A stretch of 64,000 nucleotides of DNA from an uncultured Chloroflexia bacterium (GTDB taxonomy: Bacteria; Chloroflexota; Limnocylindria; Limnocylindrales; CSP1-4): assembly GCA_963825545.1 (NCBI GenBank), contig CAWGTR010000006.1, positions 223,475-287,474 of the forward strand, written 5' to 3'. The notes under the pieces are model-generated. The model saw only the letters and a program-made list of their open reading frames with translations. It had not been told where the DNA came from and searched no databases. Below are positions 20,627-35,396 of the stretch, piece after piece (position 1 is the first letter of the stretch; each line of letters begins with the position of its first letter). Both the position numbers and the translations under genes were made by a program.

Positions 20627-21688
20627 CTAGATCCAGTTGATCCGGCGGAGGAGGTAGGCCATCAGGAACGCCAGCCCGATGATCGCGGCGGTCACCAGCC
20701 AGAAGCCGGCCGCCTCGGTGCCGGCGAATGCCGCGCCAGCCTCACTCATCCCGAAGATCCCGCCGAGCGCGCCAATCCCCGCCAGCACGACCGTCACCCC
20801 GGTCAGCCGCTTCATGATCAGCGACAGGTTGTTGTTGACCGTCGAGAGGTAGACGTCGAGGGTCCCGCTGACGAGTTCGCGGTAGGTGTCGAGCTCGTCG
20901 GTGAGGCGGATCAGGTGGTCATAGACGTCGCGGAAGTAGACGATCTCCGCGCTGTCGACGAGCGCGAGGTCGCGGTTCGTGAGCTGGTTGAAGATCTCGC
21001 GGACGGGCCCCGCCGCGCGACGGATCGCGACGAGCTCCCGCTTGAGCTCGAACAGCCGCTCGAGGGTCTGCGGGTCGCCCTTCTCGATCACGGCATCCTG
21101 GATCAGGTCGATCTCGTCGCCGAGCTTGTCCATGAGCGGGAAGTAGCCGTCGACGAGGTCGTCGCAGATCGCCCACAGCAGGTGGTCGGGGCCATGCGCC
21201 AGGACGAGCTCGAAGCCACCGGCCTTGAGGTGGTGGATCGCCCGGGGGTCCCAGTCTGAATCGTGGACCGTGAGCAGGAATCCTTCGCCGAGCACGACGT
21301 CGATCTCGCTCGGCACGATCGGGTCGCCGTACTCGAGCGCGAACAGCACGATGTGGATCAGGTCGTCGGTGACCTCGATCTTCGCCCGCTGGTTACCCTC
21401 GAGGATGTCCTCCGCGATGAGCTCGTGCAGCCCGAGCGCCTGGGTGATCGCAGCGACCTGGTCGGGCGACGGCCCGCTCGCGTCGATCCAGACGGAGCCG
21501 TCGGCCGGGATGGATGTCGGGATCGACGCGAGCCCTTCGGCCTCGCGGACCGCGGACCCGGCCCGCTCGAAGACGCGGATCCGCCCGTCGCCCGCGCCGA
21601 CGGCGTCGTGGTGGACACGATGAGCGAACCCGTCGAGCGGATCCGAGCGCGGCTCAGAGCGCGAGGGTCGGCTCCGTTTCCTCGCCAT
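20627..21688 (-). CDS. corA: CorA-family divalent cation transporter (signature reads GMS instead of GMN)
   Basis: Cytoplasmic CorA domain (LHELIAEDILEGNQRAKIEV...) with two C-terminal TMs and GGIFGMSE. ATG 21688 was chosen; the longer ORF start at 21928 is Arg-rich junk. Confidence 0.8.
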   Translation of the reverse strand: MARKRSRPSRSEPRSDPLDGFAHRVHHDAVGAGDGRIRVFERAGSAVREAEGLASIPTSIPADGSVWIDASGPSPDQVAAITQALGLHELIAEDILEGNQRAKIEVTDDLIHIVLFALEYGDPIVPSEIDVVLGEGFLLTVHDSDWDPRAIHHLKAGGFELVLAHGPDHLLWAICDDLVDGYFPLMDKLGDEIDLIQDAVIEKGDPQTLERLFELKRELVAIRRAAGPVREIFNQLTNRDLALVDSAEIVYFRDVYDHLIRLTDELDTYRELVSGTLDVYLSTVNNNLSLIMKRLTGVTVVLAGIGALGGIFGMSEAGAAFAGTEAAGFWLVTAAIIGLAFLMAYLLRRINWI

Positions 21689-23366
21689 CGATCGTCCGCG
21701 AGCCTCCCTCGTGGCGAGTGCCCTCGCCGACGTCGCCGGACCCGACCGCCGGCGAGTCGTCCGCCAGCATACGCGTCCGGCGGGTCCCGAGCGCGAGCGC
21801 CGGGAGGACCGCGGCGGCGACCACGATCGCCGCAGCGAGGAACAGCCCGACCATGATCCGGGACGCCTCGCCCGACGCCCAGCGCTCGAGGGCGGCCACC
21901 ACCAGCCCGTCGTCGAACGGCCGGCCAACGAGGTTGGGCGGGAGGAACTGCTGGTACGCGTCGGGCGTGGCGCTGATCGCCTGGCTCAGCCGATCGATCG
22001 TCGTCGAGCCATACGCCGTGAGCACGGCGAGCCCGACCGCCATCCCCATCATCCGGGCGACGGTCACGGTCGCCGAAGCCATCCCGAATGCCGCCCGGCC
22101 GGCGGCCTCGACCGCGGCCGTGGAGCGCGGCGTCACGGTCAGCCCGAACCCGGCCCCGAACAACGCCACCGCCAGGGCCGCGCTGGGGATCGTGGTCGCC
22201 GGCGTCCAGCCGGCCATGGCGACCAGACCGACCCCGCAGGCCAGCAGGCCGGCGAGGGTCACCAGCCGGAGCGACAGCCGGCGCACGGCGAAGCCGGCCA
22301 CGAGGGCCCCGATCGCGGTCGTGGCGGCCAGCGAGCCGAGCACGACCTGCTGCTCGGCCGGGCCGCCGTAGAGCACCCGATCGACGAACACAGCGGCCCC
22401 CACGATCGCCGTCGCGAACGCGTACCCGGTGAGGAGCGAGATCAGCGCGGCCGACGAGAACTCCACCGAGCGGAACAGCCGGACGTCGATGAACGGATCC
22501 CGCCGGACCAGTCCACCGGCGATCGCCAGCCCGAGGCCGGCGACCGCGACGACGAACAAGCCGGCGATCAGGACTGGCGTGGGCACGCCCAGCGTCGTGC
22601 CGTCCGCCGGACTGCCGAGCAGGGTCAGCCCGAGCAGCCCCGCTCCGAGCCCGAGCGTGAACGCGACGGCCCCGCCGATGTCGACCCGGCCGGCCCGGCG
22701 CGGCGTCTCCCAGCCGGTGTCGGCGGCCCAGGCGATCGCCAGGGCGACGATCCCGATCGGGACGTTGATGTAGAAGACCCAGCGCCACGCCGGCACGAGC
22801 AGCGAGCCGAGCGGCCCGCCGGCGACGCCGGCCGCCGCCAGGGCCGATTCGGCGTGGATCGTCCGGAGCAGGGCGGCGCCGAGGAATGGGCCGGCGGCCA
22901 TGCCCAGGAAGGTCAGGGCACCGATCGCGCCGAGCGCCCGCGGTCGCGCCGAGCCGCCGTACAGGTGCGCCGCGGCGGCGGTGGCCACGGGTACGAGCGC
23001 CCCGCCACCGACCGCCTGGATGAGCCGCGCCGCAATCAGCCAGTCGAGGCTCTGGGCCGCGCCGGCGAGGAGCGATCCGAAGGTGAACGCCACGAGGGCC
23101 CCGAGGAACAGCCGCCGGGTCCCCCAGATGTCGGCGAGCCGGCCGGCCAACGGCATCGTCGCGACGTACACGAGGAGGTAGCCGTTGACGATCCAGGATG
23201 CCCGGCGTAGCTGGGTCCAGGCATCGATCTCGGCGATCCCCTCCTTGTGCGCCATGTCGACGATGATCGACGGCAGGGCGACGGCGGTGATCATCAGCTC
23301 GAGGCCGGCGAGGAAGACCCCGACGCCGAGCACGCCGAGCAGCAGGAGATTCTCGCGGCGTCGCAT
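21654..23366 (-). CDS. MFS transporter, 14-TMS DHA2/EmrB-like
   Basis: MRRRENLLLLGVLGVGVFLAGLELMITAVALPSI..., MPLAGRLADIWGTRR and many TM segments. This is the C-terminal part of a 972-aa composite track ORF. Confidence 0.85.
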   Translation of the reverse strand: MRRRENLLLLGVLGVGVFLAGLELMITAVALPSIIVDMAHKEGIAEIDAWTQLRRASWIVNGYLLVYVATMPLAGRLADIWGTRRLFLGALVAFTFGSLLAGAAQSLDWLIAARLIQAVGGGALVPVATAAAAHLYGGSARPRALGAIGALTFLGMAAGPFLGAALLRTIHAESALAAAGVAGGPLGSLLVPAWRWVFYINVPIGIVALAIAWAADTGWETPRRAGRVDIGGAVAFTLGLGAGLLGLTLLGSPADGTTLGVPTPVLIAGLFVVAVAGLGLAIAGGLVRRDPFIDVRLFRSVEFSSAALISLLTGYAFATAIVGAAVFVDRVLYGGPAEQQVVLGSLAATTAIGALVAGFAVRRLSLRLVTLAGLLACGVGLVAMAGWTPATTIPSAALAVALFGAGFGLTVTPRSTAAVEAAGRAAFGMASATVTVARMMGMAVGLAVLTAYGSTTIDRLSQAISATPDAYQQFLPPNLVGRPFDDGLVVAALERWASGEASRIMVGLFLAAAIVVAAAVLPALALGTRRTRMLADDSPAVGSGDVGEGTRHEGGSRTIDGEETEPTLAL

Positions 23367-23421: not shown

Positions 23422-23450
23422 TTGACACACGCGGTTCCCGGTCGTAGCAT
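23422..23450 (+). promoter_or_regulatory. sigma-70-like promoter: TTGACA, 17 nt spacer, TAGCAT
   Basis: TTGACA at 23422-23427 and TAGCAT at 23445-23450 with an exact 17-nt spacer, in the MFS/arsR divergent gap. Confidence 0.6.
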
Positions 23451-23478
23451 CAACAGCGATTTATATAAATCCGTGTTG
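23451..23478. promoter_or_regulatory. AT-rich inverted repeat, candidate ArsR-type operator
   Basis: CAACAgcGATTTATATAAATCcgTGTTG. The core GATTTATATAAATC (23458-23471) is a perfect 14-bp palindrome and the outer CAACA/TGTTG arms also pair. It sits just downstream of the -10 and spans the likely arsR start. Confidence 0.6.
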
Positions 23479-23898
23479 AGCCATCCGTCGCTCGACGCCC
23501 CTCGGAGCCGTCTCCTGAGCCCCTCCCCGGTCCGCATCCGCTCGACCATCGCGTCCGTCGTCGACCAGCCCGACGAGCTGCGCCAGGTGCGCCAGTTCCA
23601 CCGGGCGCTGGCCGACGTCAACCGGCTGCGGATCGTCCAGCGGCTGGCAGACGGCGCGGCGACCGTGACCGAGCTCATCGAGCACGTCGGACTGTCCCAG
23701 CCGCTCGTCAGCTGGCACCTCGGCAAGCTCCGCGCATCGGGCATCGTCACCACCCGCCGGAGCGGCCGCGAGACGCTGTGCAGCCTCCGCCGGGACGCCT
23801 TCGACGAGGCGCTCGCCCGGGAACGAGCCCTGCTCGGTCTCGGCCTCCCCGTGCTGCCCGGCCGAACCGCCGGCACGACGGACGAGCCGGCGTCATGA
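23473..23898 (+). CDS. ArsR/SmtB-family winged-helix transcriptional regulator
   Basis: FHRALADVNRLRIVQRLADGAATVTELIEHVGLSQPLVSWHLGKLRASGIV. The start is uncertain: GTG 23473 was chosen because TTG 23422 is the -35 box. The stop overlaps the next start (ATGA). Confidence 0.75.
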   Translation: MLSHPSLDAPRSRLLSPSPVRIRSTIASVVDQPDELRQVRQFHRALADVNRLRIVQRLADGAATVTELIEHVGLSQPLVSWHLGKLRASGIVTTRRSGRETLCSLRRDAFDEALARERALLGLGLPVLPGRTAGTTDEPAS

Positions 23899-24608
23899 CC
23901 GCCACGAAGCCGACGGGCGGCGGCTCGCTCGTCCGGCCCGAGACCCGGACGAGGGTCAAGAAGCTGGGCGAGCCCGTCGCTCTGTTCTTCGGCCGTCTCG
24001 GGCTCACCCCGAACGGGCTCACCCTGATCGGATTCGGCATCACCGTCCTTGGCGCGGTGCTGGTGGGCTTCCAGTACTGGCTGATCGGCGGGATCGTCGT
24101 CTTCCTCGGCGGGGTGTTCGACATGTTCGACGGGACACTGGCCCGGGCGACCGGCAAGGTCAGCCCGCTCGGCGCGTTCATGGACTCGGTCTTCGATCGC
24201 TGGGGCGAGGCCTTCGTCTATGTCGGCGTCATCGCCGGCCTGGCCGGGGCCGGCTGGGACGTCGGCGGACCGGTCCTGGCCGCCGCTGCCATGGGCTCGG
24301 CGTTCATGGTCAGCTACACCCGCGCCAAGTCCGAAGGGCTTGGGTTCACCGAGGGGACCGGGATGGCCGCGGTCGGATTGATGCCCCGCGAGGTGCGGCT
24401 CATTGTCCTGTCGGCTGGGCTCATCCTCGGTGGGATCGTTGGGACCGAGGTGATTGACCGCGGCTTCTCGATCGGCGGGACCACGGTTCCGGCGGGCATC
24501 GTCCTCATCGAGGTCGCGCTGGGCATCATCACCCTGGGCGCGACCATCACCGTCATCCAGCGCATCCTCCATGTCAGGCAGCAGGCCGTCGCGCGCGACG
24601 GGAAGTAG
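23895..24608 (+). CDS. pgsA: CDP-alcohol phosphatidyltransferase, phosphatidylinositol-phosphate synthase-like
   Basis: DMFDGTLARATGKVSPLGAFMDSVFDR matches the D-x2-DG-x2-AR...G-x3-D-x3-D motif. Polytopic, and immediately upstream of ino1. Confidence 0.8.
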   Translation: MTATKPTGGGSLVRPETRTRVKKLGEPVALFFGRLGLTPNGLTLIGFGITVLGAVLVGFQYWLIGGIVVFLGGVFDMFDGTLARATGKVSPLGAFMDSVFDRWGEAFVYVGVIAGLAGAGWDVGGPVLAAAAMGSAFMVSYTRAKSEGLGFTEGTGMAAVGLMPREVRLIVLSAGLILGGIVGTEVIDRGFSIGGTTVPAGIVLIEVALGIITLGATITVIQRILHVRQQAVARDGK

Positions 24609-24620
24609 GGAGACAGTCAG

Positions 24621-25859
24621 GTGGCCAAGACCGGGAAGAACGGAACCAACGGCACGAACGGCGCGAAGCCGGCTGCCGGCGCGGCGCGCCGGACCGACGG
24701 CAAGATCCGGGTCGCGATCGTCGGGGTGGGGAACTGCGCCAGCAGCCTCGTCCAGGGTCGTTACTACTACGAGAACGCGAAGAAGGAGGACTTCGTCCCC
24801 GGCCTAATGCACGTCGAGCTCGGCGGGTACCACGTTCGCGACATCGAGTTCGTCGCCGCGTTCGACATCGACAAGAACAAGGTCGGCAAGGACCTCTCCG
24901 AGGCGATCTACCAGAAGCCGAACAACACCTACGTCTTCCAGCAGGTCCCGCACATCGGGGTGACCGTCGACCGCGGAATGACCCACGACGGGCTCGGCAA
25001 GTACCTCAGCCAGATCATCGAAAAGGCGCCCGGCCCGACGGCCGACGTCGTCGGGATCCTCCGCGAGCGCGAGGTCGACGTGATGGTCTCCTACCTGCCG
25101 GTCGGCAGCGAGGAGGCCACGAAGTGGTACGTCGAGCAGGCGCTCAAGGCGGGCGTCGGGTTCGTGAACGCCATCCCGGTGTTCATCGGCCGCGAGCCGT
25201 ACTGGCAGCGGCGCTTCGCCGAGGAGGGCCTGCCGGTCATCGGTGACGACATCAAGAGCCAGGTCGGGGCCACGATCAGCCACCGCGTCCTGACCCGCCT
25301 GTTCATGGACCGCGGCGTCCGCCTCGACCGGACCTACCAGCTCAACTTCGGCGGCAACACCGACTTCCTCAACATGCTCGAGCGCGAGCGTCTCGAGTCG
25401 AAGAAGATCTCGAAGACGAACGCGGTCACGAGCATGCTCGACTACGAGGTCGACCCCGATGACGTCCACGTCGGCCCGAGCGACCACGTTCCGTGGCTGC
25501 TCGACCGGAAGTGGTGCTACATCCGGATGGAGGGCACGACCTACGGCGACGTGCCGCTCAACGCCGAGCTCAAGCTCGAGGTCTGGGACAGCCCGAACAG
25601 CGCCGGCGTGATCACCGACGCGATCCGCTGCCTCAAGCTCGGCCTCGACCGCGGGCTCACCGGAACCCTGGTCGCGCCGTCGAGCTACTTCATGAAGAGC
25701 CCGCCAATCCAGATCCACGACGACATCGCGTTCAACCGGGTCGAGGCGTTCATCCGGGGCGAGGACAACGAGACCCTCGTCGGCACGGAGGCTCCGCAGA
25801 AGCGGACGCTCAGGCGGCTGGCCGGGCCGAAGGCGAAGGTGGCGGCCGGAGCCCGGTGA
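24621..25859 (+). CDS. ino1: myo-inositol-1-phosphate synthase
   Basis: [53 protein letters not shown] and [11 protein letters not shown]. Confidence 0.95.
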
Positions 25860-26872
25860 CCTCGGTCCCGGATCGGCCCGTGGCCGGCGGGCCGATCGAC
25901 CCTGGACCGCGACCCGCACTCGAGAGGCCCAACCGGCGCGTCGCGAGCGCGCCACGGGTCGTCGAGAAGACGGCGGTGCTCGCCTACCGGCTGGCCGAAT
26001 GGCTCGTCGCCCGGCTGCCGACCGGGCCGACGGCGCGTGTCGTCGGCTGGTTCGTCCAGGGGTCCTACCTGCTCTGGCCGACGAAGCGGCGCTGGTCCAA
26101 CCGCAACTTCGGCCATGTCCTCGGGCTGCCGCCCGACGACCCGGCGGTGCGGCGGATGGCGCTCCGGGCGTACCGGAGCTACGCCCGCTACCTCGTCGAG
26201 CTCCTTCAGCTCCCGTCGCTGAGCCAGGAGCGGGCGATCGGCCTGATCGACCAGGCCGCCGTCGACGACGTCGAGCGGCTGTGGCGGGGCTCGAACGGGC
26301 TGATCTTCGCGGCCTGCCACGTCGGGAACAACGAGATCATCGCCGCGGCCATCGGGTGGCGCGGCTGGCCGTTGGCGGGGCTGGCCGACGACTCGACGTT
26401 CCCCGAGCTGTTCGAGCATCTCCGCGCGGAGCGAGCCCGCTGGAACGCCCGGGTGATCCCGTGGCGCAACCTGCGCGAGGTCTACGCGGTCCTCCGACGG
26501 CGCGAGATGCTCGCCCTGCTGGTCGACTGGGGCTATCGGGCGGATGACGTCCCGGTCCGCCTGTTCGGCGCCTGGACGACCCTGCCGGCCGGACCGGCGA
26601 CGCTCGCCGGAAAGACCGGAGCGCTCATCGTGCCGGTCGCCATCCGGCGGCTGCCCGACGGCCGGTTCCACGCCTCGACCGAGCCACCGATCCAGGTGGC
26701 GTCGACCGAGCCGGCCGAGGTCCTGCGCGCTACGCAGGCCATCGCCGACGCGATCGAAGGGGTGATCGCGGCCGCTCCCGAGCAGTGGTACAGCTTCAAG
26801 CCGATATGGCCCGAGACCGCGGCCGAGGCCGCCGAGCTGGAGCGGCGTGCCGCCCGGATGGCCGCCGGATGA
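25856..26872 (+). CDS. LpxL/HtrB-PatA-type lysophospholipid/glycolipid acyltransferase (paralog 1)
   Basis: GTGA overlap with ino1. AACHVGNNE (HX4-acidic motif) and the C-terminal [12 protein letters not shown] typical of the family. Confidence 0.7.
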
Positions 26873-27870
26873 GCCGCGCAACGGCCGCCCCGGCCGCCGG
26901 GATCCCGGCGAGCGAGCGATCCACCGCCCGGCAGCGGATCGTCGCCGACGCCGTGACCGCCGCGTCGTGGCTCGCCTGCCATCTGCCCGAGCGACCGCTC
27001 GTCGGGCTGGCCGAGCTCGTCGGCGAGCTGTGGTACCTGGTCGACCGGCGGCGTGCCGAGCAGGCTCGCCGCAACCTGCGCCGGGTGACCGGCTGGATGG
27101 TGGCCGAGGGTCTTGCCGACGCACGGATCCGCGCGGCGTCCCGCGGCGGGCGGGCGCTCGACCGGTTGGTCCGGGCGGCGTTCCGCCACTACGCCACCTA
27201 TTACCTCGACGTTGCCCGGGCACCCGCGCTGACGCCCGCCTATCTCGCCGAGCGGCTGACGATCGAGACGCCGGAAGCGTTCGACGACGCCTTTGGCGAG
27301 CCCGGGCCGCGGATCTTCCTCGGGCTCCACTTCGGAGCGATCGAGCTGCAGGCGTACGTCGCCGCCGTCCACGCCGCGCGGCCGCTGACCACGCCGATGG
27401 AGACGGTCGACGATCCGGCTCTCCAGCGCTACTTCGTCCGGACGCGCGGCGCGCTCGGGATCCGGATCGTCGGGCTGCGCGAGGCGCGCCGCGAGGTCCT
27501 CGCCGCCCTCGGCCGTGGCGAGCCCGTCGGGATCGTCGGGGACCGCGACCTGACCGGCGGCGGAATGCCGGTCACGCTGTTCGGATCGCGCGCGTCGCTG
27601 CCCCTCGGCCCGGCGCTCGTGGCCATCGAGAGCGGCGCGCCGACGTTCGCGGTGACGGCGCGCCGGCTGCCGGGCGGGCGCTACGTCGGCCGGCTCGACC
27701 GGCTGGCCATCCCGGCCGCCGGCTCGCGGCGCGAGCGCGTGTCGGCCTTCCTCGACGAGGAGGCGCGCTGGTTCGAGCGCCAGGTCAGCGCCGCCCCGGA
27801 GCAGTGGTGGGCGGTCTTCTTCCCGATCTGGCCCGATCTCGAGGCCGCTCCGGCCGGGATCCGGCGATGA
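26869..27870 (+). CDS. LpxL/HtrB-PatA-type acyltransferase (paralog 2)
   Basis: ATGA overlap. RRAEQARRNLRRV, GLHFGAIEL, GIVGDRDL and APEQWWAVFFPIW. Confidence 0.7.
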   Translation: MSRATAAPAAGIPASERSTARQRIVADAVTAASWLACHLPERPLVGLAELVGELWYLVDRRRAEQARRNLRRVTGWMVAEGLADARIRAASRGGRALDRLVRAAFRHYATYYLDVARAPALTPAYLAERLTIETPEAFDDAFGEPGPRIFLGLHFGAIELQAYVAAVHAARPLTTPMETVDDPALQRYFVRTRGALGIRIVGLREARREVLAALGRGEPVGIVGDRDLTGGGMPVTLFGSRASLPLGPALVAIESGAPTFAVTARRLPGGRYVGRLDRLAIPAAGSRRERVSAFLDEEARWFERQVSAAPEQWWAVFFPIWPDLEAAPAGIRR

Positions 27871-28688
27871 CCGATCGGCTGGGTCGCGCCGACCTGCACA
27901 TCCACACGCTGGCATCGGACGGGATCTCCGGGATCGACGAGATCCTCGACCGGGTCGAGACGGTCGGCGAGCTCGACGTGATCGCCATTACCGACCACGA
28001 GCGGATCGACGCGGCGCTGGCCGCCCGGACGATCGCCCGCGATCGCGGCGCCCCGTTCGAGGTCGTCATCGGCGAGGAGGTCACCACCCGCGGCGGCCAT
28101 CTCCTCGCCCTGTTCATCGAGTCCCCGGTCCGCTCGCTGCGCTCGCTGCGCTCGACGATCGCCGAGATCCACGACCAGGGCGGCCTGGCCATCCCGGCGC
28201 ACCCGCTCGTTCCGTACCCGCTGTGCGCCCAGGGGTTCGTGCTGCGGCGGCTGCTCGGCGAGTCGGACCCGCGCTACCACCCGGACGGGCTCGAGACATT
28301 CAACCCGACGACCCTCGGTCGGCCGCTCCACGCCCGGGTCGTGCGCTTCGCCGTCGACCACGACCTGGCCCAGATCGGCGACAGCGATGCCCATGCGGCG
28401 GTGTCGATCGGTACGGGCTGGACGACCTTCCCGGGCCGTGGCGCCGACGATCTCCGGGCCGCGATCCTCGCGCGCGAGACGCACGCGCACGGGAGCTTCC
28501 ACGGCACCGGCAACCAGGTGTCGACGTTCGGGCGGCAGCTCCGCAAGTACGGCCGCGACGTGCGCGACGAGGTGCGCGGCCGGGTCCGTCGGGACGGCAC
28601 CGGGCGGGACCACGGCTACCCGGGCGGCCGGGCCCGACCGCCACGCTACGAGCCGGGAGCCGTGGCCGGTCCGGAGCACGGACGATGA
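27867..28688 (+). CDS. PHP-domain metal-dependent phosphoesterase
   Basis: ATGA overlap. ADLHIHTLASDG, AITDHERID, IGEEVTTRGGHLLALF, AIPAHP and GDSDAH are PHP His/Asp metal ligand motifs. Confidence 0.8.
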   Translation: MTDRLGRADLHIHTLASDGISGIDEILDRVETVGELDVIAITDHERIDAALAARTIARDRGAPFEVVIGEEVTTRGGHLLALFIESPVRSLRSLRSTIAEIHDQGGLAIPAHPLVPYPLCAQGFVLRRLLGESDPRYHPDGLETFNPTTLGRPLHARVVRFAVDHDLAQIGDSDAHAAVSIGTGWTTFPGRGADDLRAAILARETHAHGSFHGTGNQVSTFGRQLRKYGRDVRDEVRGRVRRDGTGRDHGYPGGRARPPRYEPGAVAGPEHGR

Positions 28689-29917
28689 AGATCGGGCTGG
28701 TGACGCCGTACGTGTACCCGGTTCCGGGCGGCGTCAACGAACACGTCCGCTACCTCTACGAGAACCTGCGCCTGCACGGACACGACGTCCGGATCATCAG
28801 CAGCAGTCACGGCCTCCAGCGCGCCTCCGAGGGCGACATCATCCGGCTCGGGAAGGGCTTCAGCGTCCCGATGAACGGCTCCGTCGGAACGGTTACCCTC
28901 TCGCCGCGCTACGTGGGCCTGGTCGACGAGATGCTCGACCGCGAGCGGTTCGACGTCCTGCACTTCCACGAGCCGTTCGTGCCGTTCCTGTCGCTCATCC
29001 TGCTGCGCCGGTCGCGGAGCGTGAACGTCGCGACGTTCCACGCCTACGCCGGGTTCTCGCTGTCCTACGAGTTCGGGGCGCGCGTCATGCAGGGCCACGC
29101 CCGGCTGCTCCATGGCCGAATCGCCGTCAGCGCAGCGGCGCGGCACTTCATCGACCGCTACTTCCCGGGCGACTACAAGATCATCCCCAACGGCGTCGAC
29201 GTCGACCGCTACCGGAAGGCGGTCCCGATCGCGCGCTGGCAGGACGGCACGCGCAACCTCCTGTTCGTCAGCCGCCTCGAGCCGCGCAAGGGAGTGCTCG
29301 TCCTGCTCAAGGCGTACCGGATCCTGCGCAAGACCGGTTGCCCATGCCGGCTCCTCGTCGTCGGTTCCGGACCGCAGGAGCGCGAGGCTCGGCGCTACGT
29401 GATGACCCGCCGGCTGGCCGGGGTGGAGTTCCTCGGCCGGGTGAGCGACGCGGAGAAGGCCCAGCTGTTCCGCACGGCCGACGTGTTCGTGGCCCCGGCG
29501 ACCGGTCGCGAGTCGTTCGGGATCGTGCTCCTCGAGGCGATGGCCGCCGGCGCGCCGATCGTGGCCTCGGACATCCACGGCTACAAGGGCGTCGTCCGGC
29601 GCGGCGAGCAGGGCCTGCTCGTGCCACCGGGCGAGCCGCGCGAGCTCGCCGCGGCGATCGGGCGGCTCGTCGTCGACGACAGCCTGCGCGCTGACATGAG
29701 CGCGAGCGGGATGGCCCGGGCCGAGACGTTCAGCTGGGAGCGGATCACCGAGCGTGTCGAGAGCTACTACGGCTTCGTGATCCGCCGGCTCGCGGCCCAG
29801 GGCGCCTTGCCGGCGGACTTCCGGGCCGAGATCCCGCCCTCGCCGCGCGTCCAGCCCGCGATCGCAGACTCCGACGGAACGGTCGAGGAACCCTCGGTCA
29901 TCGCCCGCCGCGGCTAA
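28685..29917 (+). CDS. pimA: GT4 (GT-B) glycosyltransferase, PimA-like
   Basis: ATGA overlap. MKIGLVTPYVYPVPGGVNEHV, FVSRLEPRKG and ESFGIVLLEAMAAGAPIVASD (E-x7-E). The gene symbol is tentative and rests on operon context. Confidence 0.7.
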   Translation: MKIGLVTPYVYPVPGGVNEHVRYLYENLRLHGHDVRIISSSHGLQRASEGDIIRLGKGFSVPMNGSVGTVTLSPRYVGLVDEMLDRERFDVLHFHEPFVPFLSLILLRRSRSVNVATFHAYAGFSLSYEFGARVMQGHARLLHGRIAVSAAARHFIDRYFPGDYKIIPNGVDVDRYRKAVPIARWQDGTRNLLFVSRLEPRKGVLVLLKAYRILRKTGCPCRLLVVGSGPQEREARRYVMTRRLAGVEFLGRVSDAEKAQLFRTADVFVAPATGRESFGIVLLEAMAAGAPIVASDIHGYKGVVRRGEQGLLVPPGEPRELAAAIGRLVVDDSLRADMSASGMARAETFSWERITERVESYYGFVIRRLAAQGALPADFRAEIPPSPRVQPAIADSDGTVEEPSVIARRG

Positions 29918-29951: not shown

Positions 29952-32900
29952 TCAGCCGGCCTGGCCGGTTGTCACGATCGAGCCAGGGTCGCGGCGCGCC
30001 GCCTCGCGCTCGGCCGCGGCGATCCGCCAGGCCCACGCGGCGTAGCCCACGATCACGCTCGTAACGAGCAGCGCGGCCAGGAGCAGGAGCACGTCGGCGA
30101 GGTGAGCCGTGATCGAGAACGGAACGACCTTGTCGGTGTTGACGGGGAACTGGAACGCGTACAGGTAGGTCGGCAGGAGGCCCTGGTACGCGTTCACGAT
30201 CGCGGCCGGCAGCGGGAGCCCCGAGATGTTCGGATACCACGTGACGAACCAGACGACGCAGGCGAGCATGATCCCTGCCGCGAACCGGCGGCTGTCGCGC
30301 GCGGTAGCCACGACCCAGGCGATCGGCGACAGGGCGATGAGGACGACGAGGGCGATCGGCTCGATTCGGAAGCCGTCCTGGCTCAGGATCGCGGTGTCCG
30401 GCAGGAACCCGCCAACGAGGATGAGCCCGATCGCCCCGCCGACGGCGGTCGCGGCGATCTGGAGGAACCGCCGATTCGCCTCCTCGGCCGATCGGTTGCC
30501 CGAACCGAGCCGGAGGATCTGGACGACAAGCAGCGCGCCGGCGACGAGCAGGATCGCGGCCAGCCCGGCGGTCCGCCAGGTCAGGACGATCTGCCCCGGG
30601 GCCGTCGCGACGCAGGCCTCCGAGCCCGGGTTGACCGCCGTGACCCGCACGAACGTGCACAGCGGGCCCTTGAACAGCCACATGAGAGCCGGGCCGAGGA
30701 CCGCGATCGCCGCGCTCACCCGGGCCAGCGCCCAGGTCCGTGCCGACGGCCCGTTCCGGAGCTCCGCGACGAAGTAGGCGAGGGCGATCAGCAGGAACGG
30801 CACCGCCGCGTAGTAGTGGTACTGGAAGGTGGCCCGGTCGATCCGCGCCCAGGGCAGCCACTGGAAGGCAAACGCGACGAAGACGAGCCCGAGGGCCAGG
30901 CTCCGGCGCTTGAACGCCTGCCAGGCCACGAACAACATCGCCGGGATCGACAGCCACCAGGCGACGAGGTTCCCCGCGTCGTAGATCGCCGCGGACGTGT
31001 TGGCCGCGAACGAGTCCTGGTAGAACCAGACCGGCTTGAGGTCGAGCGGCCAGGCCCAGTACGGCGACGACGCCGCATGGGTCGCCCGGAGCCCGTTGTG
31101 GTAGTCGTACATCTGGCGGGTCAGCGCGAGCAGCGTCTGGCCCGTGTTGCCGGGCGGCCACGTATCGGTGAGCCGGTTGCCCAGCGCCACCCAGGGCAGG
31201 TATGAGATCACGTAGACGACGATCGGGACCACCGCCAGGCAGATCACGCCCCATACGATCGGGAGGCCGAGGAGCGTCCCTGGTCGGAGCCAGCCCTCGG
31301 GCGGCGGGGACCCGGGCTCGGTGAGCCGGACCGGGTCGTCCGGGTCGGGCGGCAGCGCCAGCGGCCCGAGCCCCCAGATGCCGGCGAATCGCAGGATCGC
31401 CCAGACCACGCCCGAGCCGAGGATGAGCAGGAGCGAGATCACCGTCGGCGTCAGGGCCGCCGGGCCCGCGCCGATCGGCTTCACGGCGATGCCGAGCGGG
31501 ACCGCGATGAGGAACACCAGGATCCCGATCGCAGCCGGACCCACGATCGCGAGACGGGTCTCCTCGGCCGACCAGGCGATCGGACGGAAGACGGTCACGA
31601 GGACGGCCCCGAGCGTCAGGGCGATCATCAGCGCGACGAAGAGGAAGTTGCCGGCGCTCGTCGAGGCGTCCGGGGCGATGTCGATCGCCATGTAGCCTAG
31701 CACGGCCGTCCCGAGCGCCAGCCCGAGGATGAGCAGGATCCGGCCGAGCGCGGAGCGGCCCAGGATGAGCACGACGACGCCGGCCATGGCGTACAGCCCG
31801 ACCCATTTCGAGGCGAGCGCGAACCCAAGCAGCACGCCCACCGCGGGCAGCACGACCCAGAACGCCCACGGCCGTTTCCAGCGTCCGAGCCAGAGCGGTG
31901 CGAACAGGGTGTAGGCGGCCACGATGAAGAGGCCGACGTAGACGTCGTTCATCGCGATCCGGCTCTGCACGAAGAGCATTCCGTCGACCAGGACGAGAAT
32001 GGCGGCGATGACCGCGATCTCGCGACGCCGGAACAGGATCCGCACGAGCAGGAAGATGAGCCCGGCCGTGAGCGCCCCGGCGAGCATTCCCGGCAGGCGC
32101 CAGGCGAACGCGTGGTTGCCTGAGTCGACCGTGGCGAGCATCCCGTCGGCGGACGTGGCCAGGATCGCCTGGCGGTCGCCGCTCGGGTTCTCCGGGTTGG
32201 CGTCGAGCGCCCAGGCCTGCGCGTCGAACGGCAACCGGGCATCCGCATAGACCGCATTGCCGTGCGGCTCGACGACGTAGATCGTGTCGCTCGTCCCGTC
32301 CGGGGTCCGACCCAACACGTGGACCATCTGGGTCGGCTGGTCGTACACGAGGTCCCGGACGTCACCCGGCATCGGGAACGTCGTCGTCAGGTGCGGCCCC
32401 TCCTTGCCGTCGCCCTGCCCGAGCTGGATGACGGCCACGTTCTTGCCTTCGAGGGCCGCGTACAGGGTGGGCTGGTCGATCCCCGTCACGACGGTCAGGC
32501 CGCGGGCGGCGCCGTCGAGCGTCACGGTGTCCACGATCTGGCCCGTGGCCGGCGAGATGAACGTCACGCCGCCCTCGTCCGCGACCGCGATCCGCGGCAG
32601 CGGCGCGACCGTCAGCCCGGTCAGGCGGCCGTCCGAGATCGCGGTCGAGATGTCCTTCTGTTGCTGGTCGTCGGTGAACCCGCCGAGCAGGACCACCGCG
32701 GCCTCCCCCGCCGACGTGGCGGCCGTCAGTCGAGCCTGGTAGTCGGCGGCGTTCCCGCCGGTGATCGTGGCCAGGGCCGCGGACACGGCGGCCGGGTCGG
32801 TGACGGCCGTCGGGTCTGCCGTCAGCCCGTCGCCCAGTCCGCCGTCGGCGAGATCCGAGACGCCGCCGAGCCGCTGCCGGCCCGTCTCGGCGCCCGTGCT

Positions 32901-35396
32901 CGGGTCGACGAGGACGACCTCGCCACCACTCGTGGCGACCGCCATCCCGGAGGCGTCGGTGGTCAGCCCGAGATGCGTCACCGGCGCCTTCACGTCGGCC
33001 AGCGGCGCCGGCCCGTCGACGCTGGTGATCGGCGTTTCGGCGCTGTACCCGCCTGACGCCCGGGCGTCGTCGAGCACCGTCGTGTCGAGCGCGAGCACCT
33101 GGCCGCTGTCCGTGCCGACGAGGACGCGGTGACCGACGGGATCGAGCGTGAGGGCCGACGCCCCCGGCACCGACCAGGTCGTGATCAGGCCGCGGGTCAC
33201 CAGGTCGTAGGCCCGCAGCTCGTCGCCGCCGGCGACGTAGAAGCGGTCCCCGGACGGCGGGGACGGCCGGCTCGAGTCGACCCACTGCGGCTCGACGAGC
33301 ACGTCGCGGACCGTCGTGCCCAGCGAGCGCTGCGCGGTCACCCGGTCGTCCCCGGCGACGATCAGCCCGGCGGCCATCGCGTACTTGGCGATGTGGGGGT
33401 GGGTCCACTCGTAGATGTCGTGTGGCATCCCGTAGCGCCAGTCCTGGAGGAACTCCGTGGCGGTCCGCGCGTGGTAGACCTCGTCGAAGTGCATGCGGTA
33501 CGGCTCCGACAGCCGGAACGTCCGCGATACCAGGGCGACGAGCACGATCACCACGAGCAGCCACAGGTCGAGCCGGTCGAGCCGCCCGCCGCCCTCGCCG
33601 TGGAGTCGACGCGACCGATCGGGCAGGAGGGTCCGGATCCGGGCCAGCCCGAACGGCAGCGGCAGCCAGCCCGGGTCACGCTCGGCCGCGAACGAGGCTT
33701 CGTCCCACGCGATCGCCGGGCCGGCGCTTGGAGGGGCCGCCACCACCCGTCCGGCGACGGCACCGCCGGCCGCGGTCGTGGCCGCCACCGCCTCGCCGGC
33801 GGTCCCGGGGCCGCCCGAAGGGGCGCTCGTGTCGCCGCCGATCCACCCTCCGTCGGTCGCGTCGGCAGCGACGGCGTCCTCGTCCGCCTCCCAGAGCGCG
33901 GCGTCGATCGCCTCGCGATCCAGCCGTCGGAGCGCGGCGGGACGCAGCTCGGTGACCGCGAACACGAAGGCCGCGAAATGGATCGCCGCGACGGTCGCCA
34001 CCCCGACCGGGGATCGGATCGCGTCGGCCATGCCCAGCCAGTCCTTGATCCCGGGGTTCTGGAAGTACGGGATCAGGAGGACCGCGTACAGGTTCGCGAA
34101 GTTGGCCAGCGAGAGCAGGACGTAGGCCACGCGCCAGCGAACCGACGTGGCGGCGAGGATGGCGCCGAGGATGGCGAACGGGAAGAGGTACCGCTCGTGG
34201 ACCCGGGTGGGCACGACGAAGAACGCGATCGCCATCACCGTCAGCGCGACGAGGAGCAGCCGCCGGTCGTCGACGATGGCCCGGATCCGCTCGCCGCCCG
34301 AGCCTTCGTCGATGGTCACGATCGACGGCCGGTCCAGCCAGCCGACGACGAGGCAGACCGCCGCGATGACGATCAGCAGCAGCGCGGTCCCGACGTACAG
34401 CGCAGGGACGCCGGCGATGAGCGTCGCGACCTCGGCGGCGGTCGCCCCGGCGACGTCGCGCAGCCATTGGCCGTTCTCCGCCAACCCGTTGCCGCCGCGG
34501 CTGATCAGCGCCCACGGGTTATAGGCGTTGACGGTGATGTACGGGTAGCCGCCGGCCGTCTTGCCGACCTGCTCGACGAGCCCCACGATCGACAGGCCGA
34601 ACGGGAGGCACAGGAGGACCGCCGTCGCGAGCCCGACGCCGGCGCTCGTGACCAGCCGCAGCGGACCTTCGCCGAAGCGGTCGAGCCACGGCTCGCCGCG
34701 CGGTCCCGGCTGGGCGTCGGCCAGCGGGACGTCCCCTCCGGCTCCCGCCGGCGCAGGCGGCGCGGGCGGTCGCAGGCGATCCCACACGTGGCGCCGCAGC
34801 AGGACGATCGCCAGGATCGGCAGGAGGATCCCGAGCTGCGGCTTGATGACCGCGGCGAGCACGGCGAAGAACGTCGCCCGCTCGGGCCGGCGCCGCCACA
34901 GGTCGCGCAGGCCGAGCAGCAGGAAGATCACCCCGAAGGCGTCGACCTGGCCCCAGATCGCACTGTCGAACCAGGTGACCGGGTTGACGAGCACGAACGC
35001 GGCGCCGAGCAGGGCGGCCCGGCGCGATCCACCGAGCTCGCGGACCAGGGAGTGGACCAGCCATGCGAGGACGACGTCGGCGAGGATCGGGGGCAGCTTG
35101 ATCAGGTCGCCGATGCCCCCGATCGCGTTCCCGACGATCCCCACGAGCCACAGCACGTAGAGGTAGCCGGGCGTGTAGTCGACGAAGAAGCCCCGGTTGT
35201 AGAAGCCCCCCGGACCGTGCGTCGCGAGCTCGTTCGCCCAGGCCTGGAAGGAGCCGCGGTCCGCTCCGAACCCGGAGCCGGGGAGCAGGACGTATGCGAT
35301 GATGAGGCGGAGGGCGAGGCCGACGATCAGGATCGCGATGAGCGCCAGGGCGGCCTCGAACGACCGCCTCGGCGCCGCGGTGCCTCGGTCGGGCAC
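29952..35396 (-). CDS. giant (1814 aa) polytopic membrane protein: N-terminal GT-C module plus a GT39/PMT-like module split by a beta-propeller-like periplasmic insert
   Basis: Module 1: VDYTPGYLYVLW...VHERYLFPF. Module 2: MHFDEVYHARTA...HPHIAKYAMAAGLIVAGDD, then a roughly 420-aa repeat-rich soluble insert (FYVAGGDELRAYDL..., VLVGTDSGQVLALD...), then HAFAWRLPGMLAG...SRIAMNDVY...PYWAWPLDLKPVWFY...QYHYY. GTG start at 35396. Confidence 0.8.
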   Translation of the reverse strand: MPDRGTAAPRRSFEAALALIAILIVGLALRLIIAYVLLPGSGFGADRGSFQAWANELATHGPGGFYNRGFFVDYTPGYLYVLWLVGIVGNAIGGIGDLIKLPPILADVVLAWLVHSLVRELGGSRRAALLGAAFVLVNPVTWFDSAIWGQVDAFGVIFLLLGLRDLWRRRPERATFFAVLAAVIKPQLGILLPILAIVLLRRHVWDRLRPPAPPAPAGAGGDVPLADAQPGPRGEPWLDRFGEGPLRLVTSAGVGLATAVLLCLPFGLSIVGLVEQVGKTAGGYPYITVNAYNPWALISRGGNGLAENGQWLRDVAGATAAEVATLIAGVPALYVGTALLLIVIAAVCLVVGWLDRPSIVTIDEGSGGERIRAIVDDRRLLLVALTVMAIAFFVVPTRVHERYLFPFAILGAILAATSVRWRVAYVLLSLANFANLYAVLLIPYFQNPGIKDWLGMADAIRSPVGVATVAAIHFAAFVFAVTELRPAALRRLDREAIDAALWEADEDAVAADATDGGWIGGDTSAPSGGPGTAGEAVAATTAAGGAVAGRVVAAPPSAGPAIAWDEASFAAERDPGWLPLPFGLARIRTLLPDRSRRLHGEGGGRLDRLDLWLLVVIVLVALVSRTFRLSEPYRMHFDEVYHARTATEFLQDWRYGMPHDIYEWTHPHIAKYAMAAGLIVAGDDRVTAQRSLGTTVRDVLVEPQWVDSSRPSPPSGDRFYVAGGDELRAYDLVTRGLITTWSVPGASALTLDPVGHRVLVGTDSGQVLALDTTVLDDARASGGYSAETPITSVDGPAPLADVKAPVTHLGLTTDASGMAVATSGGEVVLVDPSTGAETGRQRLGGVSDLADGGLGDGLTADPTAVTDPAAVSAALATITGGNAADYQARLTAATSAGEAAVVLLGGFTDDQQQKDISTAISDGRLTGLTVAPLPRIAVADEGGVTFISPATGQIVDTVTLDGAARGLTVVTGIDQPTLYAALEGKNVAVIQLGQGDGKEGPHLTTTFPMPGDVRDLVYDQPTQMVHVLGRTPDGTSDTIYVVEPHGNAVYADARLPFDAQAWALDANPENPSGDRQAILATSADGMLATVDSGNHAFAWRLPGMLAGALTAGLIFLLVRILFRRREIAVIAAILVLVDGMLFVQSRIAMNDVYVGLFIVAAYTLFAPLWLGRWKRPWAFWVVLPAVGVLLGFALASKWVGLYAMAGVVVLILGRSALGRILLILGLALGTAVLGYMAIDIAPDASTSAGNFLFVALMIALTLGAVLVTVFRPIAWSAEETRLAIVGPAAIGILVFLIAVPLGIAVKPIGAGPAALTPTVISLLLILGSGVVWAILRFAGIWGLGPLALPPDPDDPVRLTEPGSPPPEGWLRPGTLLGLPIVWGVICLAVVPIVVYVISYLPWVALGNRLTDTWPPGNTGQTLLALTRQMYDYHNGLRATHAASSPYWAWPLDLKPVWFYQDSFAANTSAAIYDAGNLVAWWLSIPAMLFVAWQAFKRRSLALGLVFVAFAFQWLPWARIDRATFQYHYYAAVPFLLIALAYFVAELRNGPSARTWALARVSAAIAVLGPALMWLFKGPLCTFVRVTAVNPGSEACVATAPGQIVLTWRTAGLAAILLVAGALLVVQILRLGSGNRSAEEANRRFLQIAATAVGGAIGLILVGGFLPDTAILSQDGFRIEPIALVVLIALSPIAWVVATARDSRRFAAGIMLACVVWFVTWYPNISGLPLPAAIVNAYQGLLPTYLYAFQFPVNTDKVVPFSITAHLADVLLLLAALLVTSVIVGYAAWAWRIAAAEREAARRDPGSIVTTGQAG

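Follow-up and report, generated by a model that had tools for sequence, protein, structure and literature searches.

Phosphatidylinositol (PI) synthesis in bacteria and archaea passes through a phosphorylated intermediate. The mycobacterial pathway was reportedly revised in 2010, and its phosphatidylinositol-phosphate (PIP) phosphatase is said to have been called unidentified since. To our knowledge, the actinobacterial PI operons (Rv2613c-Rv2609c) contain no PHP gene, so such operons do not need a phosphatase of their own among their genes, a point against the proposal made below. The mycobacterial PI/PIM operon (Rv2613c-pgsA1-patA-pimA-Rv2609c) shares PIPS, a PatA-type acyltransferase and PimA with the Chloroflexota cluster described here, and its pathway likewise passes through PIP (PMC6506517); beyond these, the Chloroflexota cluster has MIPS, another PatA paralogue, a regulator of the ArsR type and a PHP protein.

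In Bacteroides thetaiotaomicron, BT_1525 of the PgpA family was assigned genetically in 2022 as the PIP-DAG phosphatase, and its knockout accumulates PIP (PMC9246714). Bacteroides (PgpA type) is so far the only case of such a genetic assignment. The first-pass annotation of our locus had held that the dephosphorylating enzyme was not firmly assigned; BT_1525 corrects this for Bacteroides, and the statement stands for mycobacteria, where the enzyme was described as unidentified in 2019 and 2020 (PMC6506517, PMC7502851) and our literature search found no later mycobacterial or actinobacterial assignment. BT_1525 catalyzes the reaction proposed below for PHP, PIP to PI after the PIPS step, and its gene clusters with those of PIPS (BT_1523) and MIPS (BT_1526), following the same genomic logic. 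Its PgpA fold and family are unrelated to the metal-dependent barrel of PHP, which we read as a non-orthologous alternative. BT_1525 rests on genetic proof, whereas for PHP we infer the function.

A PI gene cluster in a soil Chloroflexota bacterium

The window (the whole stretch of DNA analyzed, 64,000 nucleotides) belongs to a soil Chloroflexota bacterium and contains the gene order ArsR-PIPS-MIPS-PatA-like-PatA-like-PHP-PimA-like, with the following features:

23422..23450, + strand: promoter-like TTGACA-17-TAGCAT upstream of the cluster (consensus match only)
23422..23898 (ORF as listed), + strand: ArsR/SmtB-family HTH regulator, first cluster gene (HTH_5, HTH_metalloreg)
23895..24608, + strand: PIPS, CDP-alcohol phosphatidyltransferase (Pfam CDP-OH_P_transf, NCBIfam, solved structures)
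24621..25859, + strand: MIPS, myo-inositol-1-phosphate (inositol-3-phosphate) synthase (Pfam, NCBIfam)
25856..26872, + strand: PatA-like acyltransferase 1, AT1 (Lip_A_acyltrans, PRK07920, PDB PatA)
26869..27870, + strand: PatA-like acyltransferase 2, AT2 (start placed at the ATGA overlap with AT1)
27867..28688, + strand: PHP/PHP_C metal-dependent phosphoesterase, proposed PIP 3-phosphatase (fold and profile matches, genomic association with PIPS)
28685..29917, + strand: PimA-like GT4, phosphatidylinositol alpha-mannosyltransferase (PimA structures, Pfam)
29952..35396, - strand: 1814-aa PMT-family GT-C glycosyltransferase, a convergent neighbor given as context, for which pathway membership is not claimed

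Homology bears out the neighbors named in the first-pass annotation: PIPS, MIPS, two PatA-like acyltransferases and a PimA-like GT4. MIPS matches Pfam Inos-1-P_synth (8.3e-35) and TIGR03450 (E=3.5e-159, 529.7 bits against a cut-off of 638). For AT1, a Pfam Lip_A_acyltrans match (1.8e-29) is accompanied by the PIM acyltransferase PRK07920 as top NCBIfam match (3.9e-36) and by PDB matches to mycobacterial PatA only (5e-16); AT2 gives 3.1e-24 and 2.6e-34 with the same two models. The GT4, which carries Glycos_transf_1 and Glyco_transf_4 domains, aligns over its full length with Mycobacterium smegmatis PimA (2gej, 4n9w; E=6e-62), the next family following at 3e-21. Translational coupling of PHP between the acyltransferases and the mannosyltransferase was also confirmed, as ATGA overlaps flank the gene at both junctions (27867-27870 with AT2, 28685-28688 with GT4). 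An (A/G)TGA overlap further joins ArsR to PIPS, MIPS to AT1 and AT1 to AT2; the ATGA at this last junction (26869) recurs as an identical 4-nt overlap in the gene call of locus L001.

The regulator gene (Pfam HTH_5, 1.2e-12; NCBIfam HTH_metalloreg, 8.8e-22) probably starts downstream of the listed ORF start, near 23557-23635; its relatives are shorter, at 87 aa as called in L001 and 111-114 aa in Ktedonobacteria. At Limnocylindria, Dormibacteria-type and Ktedonobacteria loci, this gene stands first in the PI cluster. The promoter-like element is the single sigma-70-like match between 23000 and 30200, where 0.4 are expected by chance.

Transferase type and the step from PIP to PI

The window PIPS has the DxxDGxxAR...GxxxDxxxD motif, and its closest solved structures are the PIPS of Renibacterium, M. 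tuberculosis and M. kansasii. Its top NCBIfam matches are AIP synthase (127.6 bits), PIPSynth (110.4) and BT_1523 PIPS (98.6), all under the equivalog cut-offs. Across the transferases, four families that take inositol-1-phosphate score highest, at 129-154 bits (BT_1523 PIPS, AIP synthase, PIPSynth and DIPP synthase); PgsA reaches 29 bits. Aligned with M. tuberculosis PgsA1, whose inositol-phosphate pocket has been described (PMC6506517), the window PIPS keeps R94, S132, R152 and R155 and carries K135 to R and R137 to K changes. Inositol phosphate is the substrate of the bacterial enzymes studied so far (PMC9246714, PMC6506517). As the transferases are of this inositol-phosphate-using type, PI synthesis must pass through PIP and needs a PIP phosphatase.

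The remaining operon genes each have a homology-based role in PI/PIM synthesis. Only the conversion of PIP to PI has no gene assigned to it, and only the phosphoesterase has no step; we therefore propose, with a probability of roughly 65% and on the basis of gene context and enzyme class, that 27867-28688 encodes the PIP phosphatase of the Chloroflexota PI/PIM pathway.

These transferase data also bear on a different order of events, in which PHP acts before the transferase as a soluble inositol-monophosphate phosphatase, MIPS product is converted to free inositol, and the transferase is a eukaryote-like PI synthase. The clustering of PHP with MIPS and the transferase would follow just as readily from this order, PHP enzymes typically use small soluble phosphomonoesters (histidinol-P and pAp, for example), and histidinol-phosphate phosphatase activity is common to the PHP and IMPase families (IMPase-like, PMC4288329). 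We nevertheless consider it distinctly improbable given the family scores and the phosphate-binding pocket of the transferase. In addition, such an enzyme co-expressed with PIPS would destroy the PIPS substrate, and the Ktedonobacteria PHP gene lies beside that of the transferase with no MIPS nearby.

Fold and relatives of the PHP protein

The reading frame is intact from the ATG at 27867 to the stop codon ending at 28688 (273 aa) and, as first annotated, encodes a PHP-domain phosphoesterase with a complete ligand set. PHP_C (PF13263) matches with E=6.6e-10 (38.8 bits, cut-off 21.3) and PHP (PF02811) with E=1.4e-4, its 22.6 bits lying slightly below the cut-off of 26.4. The protein has the distorted (beta/alpha)7 barrel of the PHP superfamily and all nine metal ligands (H11, H13, D18, H44, E71, H78, H112, D174, H176), at positions that are invariant or nearly so in alignments A1 and A8 and match the ligand sites of TrpH-type structures. 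Histidinol-phosphate, pAp and Tyr-P phosphatases are among its structural neighbors. With a complete metal site, and with phosphomonoesterases among PHP enzymes, the enzyme class suits the conversion of PIP to PI. Features within the gene are:

27897..27905, + strand: HxH metal-binding motif H11-I-H13 (alignments A1 and A8, TrpH-type structures)
28506..28589, + strand: long basic amphipathic C-terminal helix, residues 214-241 (AF2 model, pLDDT ~63-78)
28599..28685, + strand: disordered Arg/Pro/Gly-rich C-terminal tail, residues 245-273 (AF2, pLDDT <50)

By sequence, the nearest characterized relatives are the TrpH/YciV enzymes (RNase AM, 7ug9 and 9etk; Cv1693, 2yb1), which share with the window protein the PHP superfamily, the N-terminal HxH...D...DH motifs and the PHP_C region. 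RNase AM-type proteins are the top PDB sequence matches (9etk, 1.4e-9; 7ug9, 4e-4), and the JGI annotation of the homologs reads 'predicted metal-dependent phosphoesterase TrpH'. PHP might accordingly act on a nucleotide or nucleic acid, or clear or regulate CMP or CDP-diacylglycerol near PIPS, leaving PIP untouched. The mycobacterial PI operon offers a parallel in its HIT and Nudix proteins, which we take to be nucleotide-directed accessory genes. The TrpH likeness, however, is confined to the N-terminal metal-binding third, and in alignments to 9etk, 7ug9 and 2yb1 some 17 query residues (76-92) replace about 100 chain residues (~71-172), so that most of the region between the matched blocks is absent. 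The NCBIfam equivalog cut-offs are missed by a wide margin (RNaseRnm, 45.6 bits against 375; nside_bi_sphtase, 31.0 against 400), and the matches cover the N-terminal 70 residues only. Membership among the TrpH/YciV RNase AM enzymes or the 3',5'-bisphosphonucleotide phosphatases was rejected on these grounds. Unlike TrpH/YciV, the window PHP adds a basic C-terminal helix and lies in a lipid-synthesis context, and a housekeeping RNase would not track PIPS across five gene orders and four classes; we regard a nucleotide substrate as very unlikely.

Other memberships were likewise discarded. The HisK/HisJ-type enzymes (4gc3, 2yxo, 3dcp) are PHP proteins that hydrolyze a phosphomonoester on a biosynthetic intermediate with a trinuclear metal center, but the window protein did not show the combination of a sequence or profile match to HisK models with close structural similarity. 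Pfam returned PHP_C and PHP only, without the PgpA of BT_1525, and no Inositol_P match to IMPase/SuhB was obtained in Pfam or NCBIfam. The closest structures, TM0559 (2anu) and BVU_3505 (3e38, which differs in having a second domain), are structural-genomics PHP phosphoesterases at only 22-24% identity; they have no known function, which counts against reading PHP as a PIP phosphatase. The CehA/McbA model NF038032 (cut-off 80 bits) scores 56.3 with the window protein, 71.4 with a Ktedonobacteria homolog and 84.7 with a Dehalococcoidia homolog; it is a generic domain model and carries no functional meaning.

The C-terminal tail has a net charge of +7 and a peak hydrophobic moment of 0.83, and its motif FGRQLRKYGRD...RRDGTGRDxGYPGG is retained down to 50% identity. 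The helix at 214-241 may serve as a membrane-surface anchor. As a PI-specific feature the basic amphipathic tail was rejected: relatives without PI neighbors carry it equally, so it does not discriminate, and no residues separated PI-linked from unlinked homologs at the thresholds used. Judged by its sequence, nothing in the PHP protein itself points to PIP, which counts against the proposed function. Neither lipids nor inositol phosphates are known substrates of any PHP enzyme, again a point against it, and a literature search found no link between PHP and PIP.

Linkage to PIPS and proposed function

All of 80 Limnocylindria species-level genomes have the cluster, and in them PHP, at 66-86% identity, is among the best-conserved cluster genes (median 72%, against 59% for PIPS and 51 and 58% for the acyltransferases). 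The genome-contig profile scan gave Limnocylindria matches only. Among metagenome loci with a PHP homolog (34-60% identity), 51/80 have PI-pathway genes within 5 kb. Where at least 3 kb is present on both sides, PIPS lies within 5 kb at 12 of 18 loci and the other six are without any PI gene; PIPS is thus found at every such locus that has any PI gene (12/12). PI-linked PHP occurs in Limnocylindria, Dormibacteria(ota), Dehalococcoidia and Ktedonobacteraceae, and the linkage has outlasted long divergence and reshuffling of the genes, with five or more gene orders observed:

Gene order 1: ArsR-PIPS-MIPS-AT-AT-PHP-GT4
Gene order 2: MIPS-AT-AT-PHP-GT4-PIPS
Gene order 3: PIPS-MIPS-AT-GT4-AT-PHP
Gene order 4: GT4-PHP with divergent ATs
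Gene order 5: ArsR-PHP-PIPS alone, with unrelated flanks (Ktedonobacteria)

The three-gene module of Ktedonobacteria, the most telling of these orders, is the minimal conserved unit, with no MIPS, PimA or PatA nearby, and ties PHP to the synthase and not to mannosylation or acylation. PI is a major polar lipid of Ktedonobacteria (PMC12453558), so a PIP phosphatase must exist there. The co-occurrence of the PHP clade with PIP synthase genes, a check put forward with the first-pass annotation, thus came out positive far beyond the window lineage, in Limnocylindria, metagenome loci and Ktedonobacteria. Lying inside the PI operon and adjoining the PIPS gene across several Chloroflexota classes, PHP is the best candidate for the enzyme converting PIP to PI in these bacteria. 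Comparative genomics (linkage to PIPS, the pathway hole and the enzyme class) thereby supports its original designation as a candidate PIP phosphatase.

Under this proposal, the pathway would run as follows. MIPS is predicted by homology to convert glucose-6-phosphate to inositol-3-phosphate (1L-myo-inositol-1-phosphate), which the membrane PIPS, likewise by homology, would join to CDP-diacylglycerol, giving PIP and CMP. PHP would sit on the cytoplasmic membrane surface through its basic amphipathic C-terminal helix, and its trinuclear metal center would hydrolyze the inositol-ring phosphomonoester, turning PIP into PI. The PI released could then be used by PimA; from their homologs, the PimA-like GT4 is expected to mannosylate it and the PatA-like enzymes to acylate the product.

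Not all relatives follow this pattern. At 28 PI-unlinked PHP loci, a negative control that favors the proposal, we found no recurrent neighbor family (no Pfam family in more than 2 of 63 neighbors) and, with profile HMMs, no PIPS or MIPS. Locus L110, with long flanks, groups with PI-linked members yet has no PI genes, which counts against the proposed function. At locus L106, a PLD-like lipid enzyme adjoins the PHP relative. The PI-linked set was cleanly monophyletic in a first NJ tree, a result dropped when the Ktedonobacteria group moved in a second tree after 113 further sequences; we count this instability of the deep branches against the proposed function. Apparent PHP-GT4, AT-PHP and four-domain fusions (P0130, P0188, P0172, P0232 and others) proved to be frameshifted read-throughs of adjacent genes, as in P0130 with its out-of-frame Arg/Pro-rich stretches; not being true fusions, they only restate adjacency.

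The unlinked relatives bear on a further explanation, in which the substrate of PHP is a different phosphorylated lipid or glycolipid within the envelope pathway and PHP works as a broad headgroup phosphatase, a phospholipase-C-like phosphodiesterase remodeling PI/PIM, or an enzyme on a mannosylated PIP intermediate, while an unlinked general phosphatase converts PIP to PI. The tail shared by all relatives, PI-unlinked ones included, and the want of separating residues suggest that the family has a wider function related to membranes; diesterases also occur among PHP enzymes (for example cyclic phosphate dihydrolase, a weak NCBIfam match), and the PLD-like neighbor at L106 fits as well. Yet in the smallest conserved unit PHP is partnered by PIPS and by neither PimA nor PatA, and a biosynthetic operon is unlikely to include a degradative diesterase as an obligate member coupled in translation, which leaves this explanation rather improbable. 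It is also unlikely, in our estimate, that there is a new family of peripheral-membrane phospholipid-headgroup phosphatases made up of compact PHP+PHP_C proteins whose C-terminal helix is basic and Trp/Phe-rich, in which the PI-linked members would serve Chloroflexota and Dormibacterota as their PIP phosphatases. Given the same active-site constellation and tail, the PI-unlinked relatives could then be dispersed orthologs or phosphatases for other headgroup phosphates, for example phosphatidylglycerophosphate in lineages without PgpA/B/C.

The named homologs belong to Chloroflexota or Dormibacterota, save a few MAGs labeled otherwise, so the clade is probably absent from Actinobacteria and PHP probably does not solve the mycobacterial case, which limits its medical relevance. 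The first-pass annotation had treated absence of the clade from most PIP-making genomes as grounds for abandoning the assignment, which is too strict; absence from Actinobacteria would be non-orthologous displacement as in Bacteroides and not a refutation. If PHP is the PIP phosphatase, it would be a second, unrelated enzyme family for PIP to PI, the step having been filled independently in different phyla, and would be the first known lipid-headgroup phosphatase, and the first known enzyme with a lipid substrate, in the PHP superfamily. For abundant soil Chloroflexota (Limnocylindria, Ktedonobacteria, Dormibacteria) the annotated PI/PIM pathway would then be complete, and a soluble, easily expressed candidate would be at hand for rebuilding bacterial PI synthesis in E. 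coli.

Downstream of the cluster, a PMT-family GT-C gene such as that of the window adjoins it in 57 Limnocylindria loci, and the L001 ortholog of the 1814-aa protein has PMT, PMT_2 and PMT_4TMC domains.

PHP gene and operon

The gene under study is an intact open reading frame of 273 codons in DNA of ~70% GC, encoding a PHP-domain phosphoesterase (PHP). The protein matches Pfam PHP_C above threshold (E=6.6e-10) and PHP just below threshold (E=1.4e-4), and is unrelated to PgpA and to inositol monophosphatases by Pfam search. Its top NCBIfam matches (generic CehA/McbA metallohydrolase domain, RNase RNM, 3′,5′-bisphosphonucleotide phosphatase) are all far under cut-offs and confined to the N-terminal third. 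The ligand motifs described in the first-pass annotation are present and the active site is complete. Its close homologues come from MAGs carrying the label Chloroflexota or Candidatus Limnocylindrales. The gene region is organized as follows, in order:

21654-23300, − strand: large MFS-type membrane transporter ORF, divergent from the operon
23422-23898, + strand: ArsR/SmtB-type HTH regulator (ArsR)
+ strand: phosphatidylinositol-phosphate synthase (PIPS), a CDP-alcohol phosphatidyltransferase; nearest solved structures are bacterial PIP synthases
+ strand: inositol-3-phosphate synthase (MIPS)
25856-26872, + strand: PatA-like acyltransferase (AT)
26869-27870, + strand: second PatA-like AT
27867-28688, + strand: PHP
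+ strand: mannosyltransferase (GT4), end-to-end match to mycobacterial PimA (E=6e-62)
29952-35396, − strand: 1814-aa PMT-family GT-C glycosyltransferase, convergent to the operon

Genes overlap by 4 nt, (A/G)TGA, at every operon junction save PIPS/MIPS, confirming the translational coupling claimed for PHP; its neighbors had also been named correctly, with acyltransferases upstream and the PimA-matching GT4 downstream. The gene, its fold class, its metal ligands and its operon coupling are established. The region contains a single sigma-70-like match, located just upstream of the regulator gene. The only promoter-like hexamers coincide with the listed regulator start (23422); the actual start therefore probably lies further downstream.

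Both tandem ATs are kept in most phosphatidylinositol (PI) clusters of Limnocylindria, Dormibacteria-type and Dehalococcoidia-type loci, and a single AT is present in a Dehalococcoidia MAG (L163). Mycobacteria carry one copy of PatA, and we know of no enzyme assigned to acylation of inositol O-3 (the Ac2PIM step), for which the second copy is a candidate; it would use the hydroxyl freed by a PIP phosphatase. The GT-C gene adjoins the operon in 57 Limnocylindria loci. In L001, a TMEM260_N-like gene and a GT2 gene come after it; the region is possibly a mannosylation island connected with synthesis of mannosylated PI or lipoglycan. The position orthologous to the transporter ORF is annotated Sugar_tr/MFS_1 in L001.

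Association of PHP with PIPS

Scanning one genome from each GTDB species gave at least 549 relatives. The best 80 of these, all MAGs and mostly labelled Chloroflexota or Limnocylindria-type (66-86% identity), have the same cluster wherever the contig is long enough. PIPS is present in 56 of the 58 loci with ≥4.3 kb upstream, the two misses being under the coverage filter, and a PimA-like gene lies directly downstream of PHP in 75/75 loci with enough downstream sequence, including three in which it overlaps the PHP stop and which the distance filter of the script had left out. PHP is better conserved (median identity 72%) than PIPS (59%) or the ATs (51 and 58%).

Because synteny within a single class could be inertia, we ran a distant-homologue profile against metagenome contigs and searched the 80 loci returned (PHP 34-60% identical to the window protein) with the window operon proteins. 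At least one PI-pathway gene lies within 5 kb of PHP in 51/80 loci; for 12 of the 29 loci with none, both flanks are <1.5 kb. Of the 18 loci whose flanks both reach ≥3 kb, 12 contain PIPS and 6 contain no PI gene, such that every long-flank locus with any PI gene has PIPS (12/12). The co-occurrence of this PHP clade with PIPS, proposed as a check, is supported by these counts. Gene order varies:

ArsR-PIPS-MIPS-AT-AT-PHP-GT4: window
[ArsR]-MIPS-AT-AT-PHP-GT4-PIPS: e.g. L084, L093, L104, L107, L111, L112
PIPS-MIPS-AT-GT4-AT-PHP: L095
GT4-PHP, ATs transcribed divergently: L130, L132
ArsR-PHP-PIPS, three-gene module: L113, L118, L120, L125, L128

The flanks of the three-gene module are unrelated (e.g. 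amino-acid permease, formamidase, NYN-domain protein). Two of the orders are corroborated by independent gene calls with precomputed Pfam annotation, which give HTH-PHP-(169 aa)-CDP-OH_P_transf on a Ktedonobacteraceae-type contig and MIPS-AT-PHP-GT4-PIPS with 4-nt overlaps in a Dehalococcoidia MAG. By source names, PHP subgroups belong to Ktedonobacteraceae, Dehalococcoidia and Candidatus Dormibacteraeota/Chloroflexota. The PHP-PIPS association is repeated and withstands rearrangement across four Chloroflexota/Dormibacterota lineages, and PI linkage of PHP occurs in several deeply diverged lineages.

The regulator, a member of the minimal module, is the first gene of the PI cluster in three classes and also occurs at L104, L107, L111, L112, L113, L118, L120, L125, L128 and L162. 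On a Ktedonobacteria-type contig (L122:10992-12179), a DDE transposase splits an otherwise adjacent PHP/PIPS pair. The Dehalococcoidia MAG GCA_035256565.1 carries a second PHP-domain gene at the edge of its PI cluster (L163:1-330, − strand), divergent from MIPS and truncated by the contig end.

Candidate reaction of PHP

PimA-type enzymes use PI as substrate, and PI is a major polar lipid of Ktedonobacteria such as Dictyobacter (PMC12453558). Top NCBIfam matches of the window, Ktedonobacteria and Dehalococcoidia transferases are BT_1523-type PIPS, archaetidylinositol-phosphate synthase, PIPSynth and DIPP synthase (up to 154 bits vs ~29-34 bits for PgsA). These four enzymes all use inositol-1-phosphate. 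By alignment, the window PIPS retains R94, S132, R152 and R155 of M. tuberculosis PgsA1, with K135/R137 swapped conservatively; these residues bind the substrate phosphate (PMC6506517). A transferase of this kind implies a PIP intermediate and hence requires a PIP phosphatase. All other cluster genes have a role. The one enzyme left over, PHP, is a metal-dependent phosphoesterase whose active site is complete, and the smallest conserved unit pairs it with PIPS rather than with MIPS, PimA or PatA.

We predict from these sequence comparisons, with a probability of about two in three, that PHP is the PIP phosphatase, a reading supported by the positive co-occurrence comparison with PIPS. PHP would dock at the membrane via its C-terminal helix and hydrolyze PIP to PI, presumably removing the phosphate carried in from inositol-3-phosphate. 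A soluble inositol-monophosphatase would destroy the substrate of PIPS. A housekeeping TrpH/RNase AM-like enzyme is disfavored by the spacing between two matched blocks (~17 residues in PHP vs roughly 100 in TrpH chains) and by equivalog scores an order of magnitude too low. Both roles are further argued against by the production of PI, the inositol-phosphate-type PIPS, the lack of another role-less enzyme and the PIPS partnership. Action on some other membrane phosphoester is a possible alternative to PIP hydrolysis.

The first-pass annotation held the dephosphorylating enzyme not to be firmly assigned, which agrees with descriptions for mycobacteria ('yet-unidentified' or 'unknown' in 2019-2020; PMC6506517, PMC7502851) and fails for Bacteroides thetaiotaomicron, where BT_1525 performs this step and its knockout accumulates PIP-DAG (PMC9246714). 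In the literature searched, we found no later mycobacterial assignment and no paper tying a PHP protein to PIP. BT_1525 belongs to the PgpA family, to which the window protein is unrelated. The known reaction would then be solved here by a non-orthologous protein, and the PHP superfamily would gain a new class of substrate. Named homologues are all Chloroflexota or Dormibacterota, bar a few MAGs labelled Verrucomicrobiia, Patescibacteria, Acidoferrum or Sulfomarinibacteraceae, which might be wrongly binned or labelled. The family is probably restricted to one phylum, and given this distribution PHP is unlikely to resolve the question for mycobacteria. If the prediction is true, a known pathway step would have a new enzyme family in PHP. 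Most PI-making bacteria have no enzyme assigned to this step, for which PHP is a specific candidate that can be tested cheaply.

PHP relatives at loci without PI genes

Neighbors at 28 loci without PI genes are heterogeneous, with top Pfam recurrence of ≤2/63 neighboring proteins. PIPS and MIPS profile HMMs built from sequences found here gave no match in these loci, bar one marginal partial match at the end of a short contig (L109). A first NJ tree placed PI-linked PHP proteins together with unlinked proteins outside; the Ktedonobacteria group moved when more sequences were added, so we do not claim monophyly of the PI-linked set. Comparison of linked and unlinked proteins revealed no cleanly separating residues, and both groups carry the basic amphipathic C-terminal tail, suggesting that unlinked proteins may be dispersed orthologues or serve related substrates.

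Thirteen unlinked PHP/PHP_C relatives (L110, L119, L134, L136, L138, L146, L147, L151, L154, L155, L157, L158, L160; 34-44% identity) share the same metal ligands and basic Trp/Phe-rich C-terminal tail, and no recurrent neighbor family was found at their loci. Apparent domain fusions (P0130, P0131, P0172, P0188, P0232 and others) were rejected as frameshifted read-throughs across overlapping AT2-PHP-GT4. Such read-throughs, from high-GC metagenome contigs, account for many of the long 'multi-domain' representatives in the 50%-identity protein library, so domain fusions should be inferred with care from data of this kind. L154 carries two PHP genes, each beside a distant GT4. On the short contig L106, a PLD-like (PLDc_2) lipid enzyme gene (54-980) lies directly upstream of a PHP gene whose product groups with PI-linked members.
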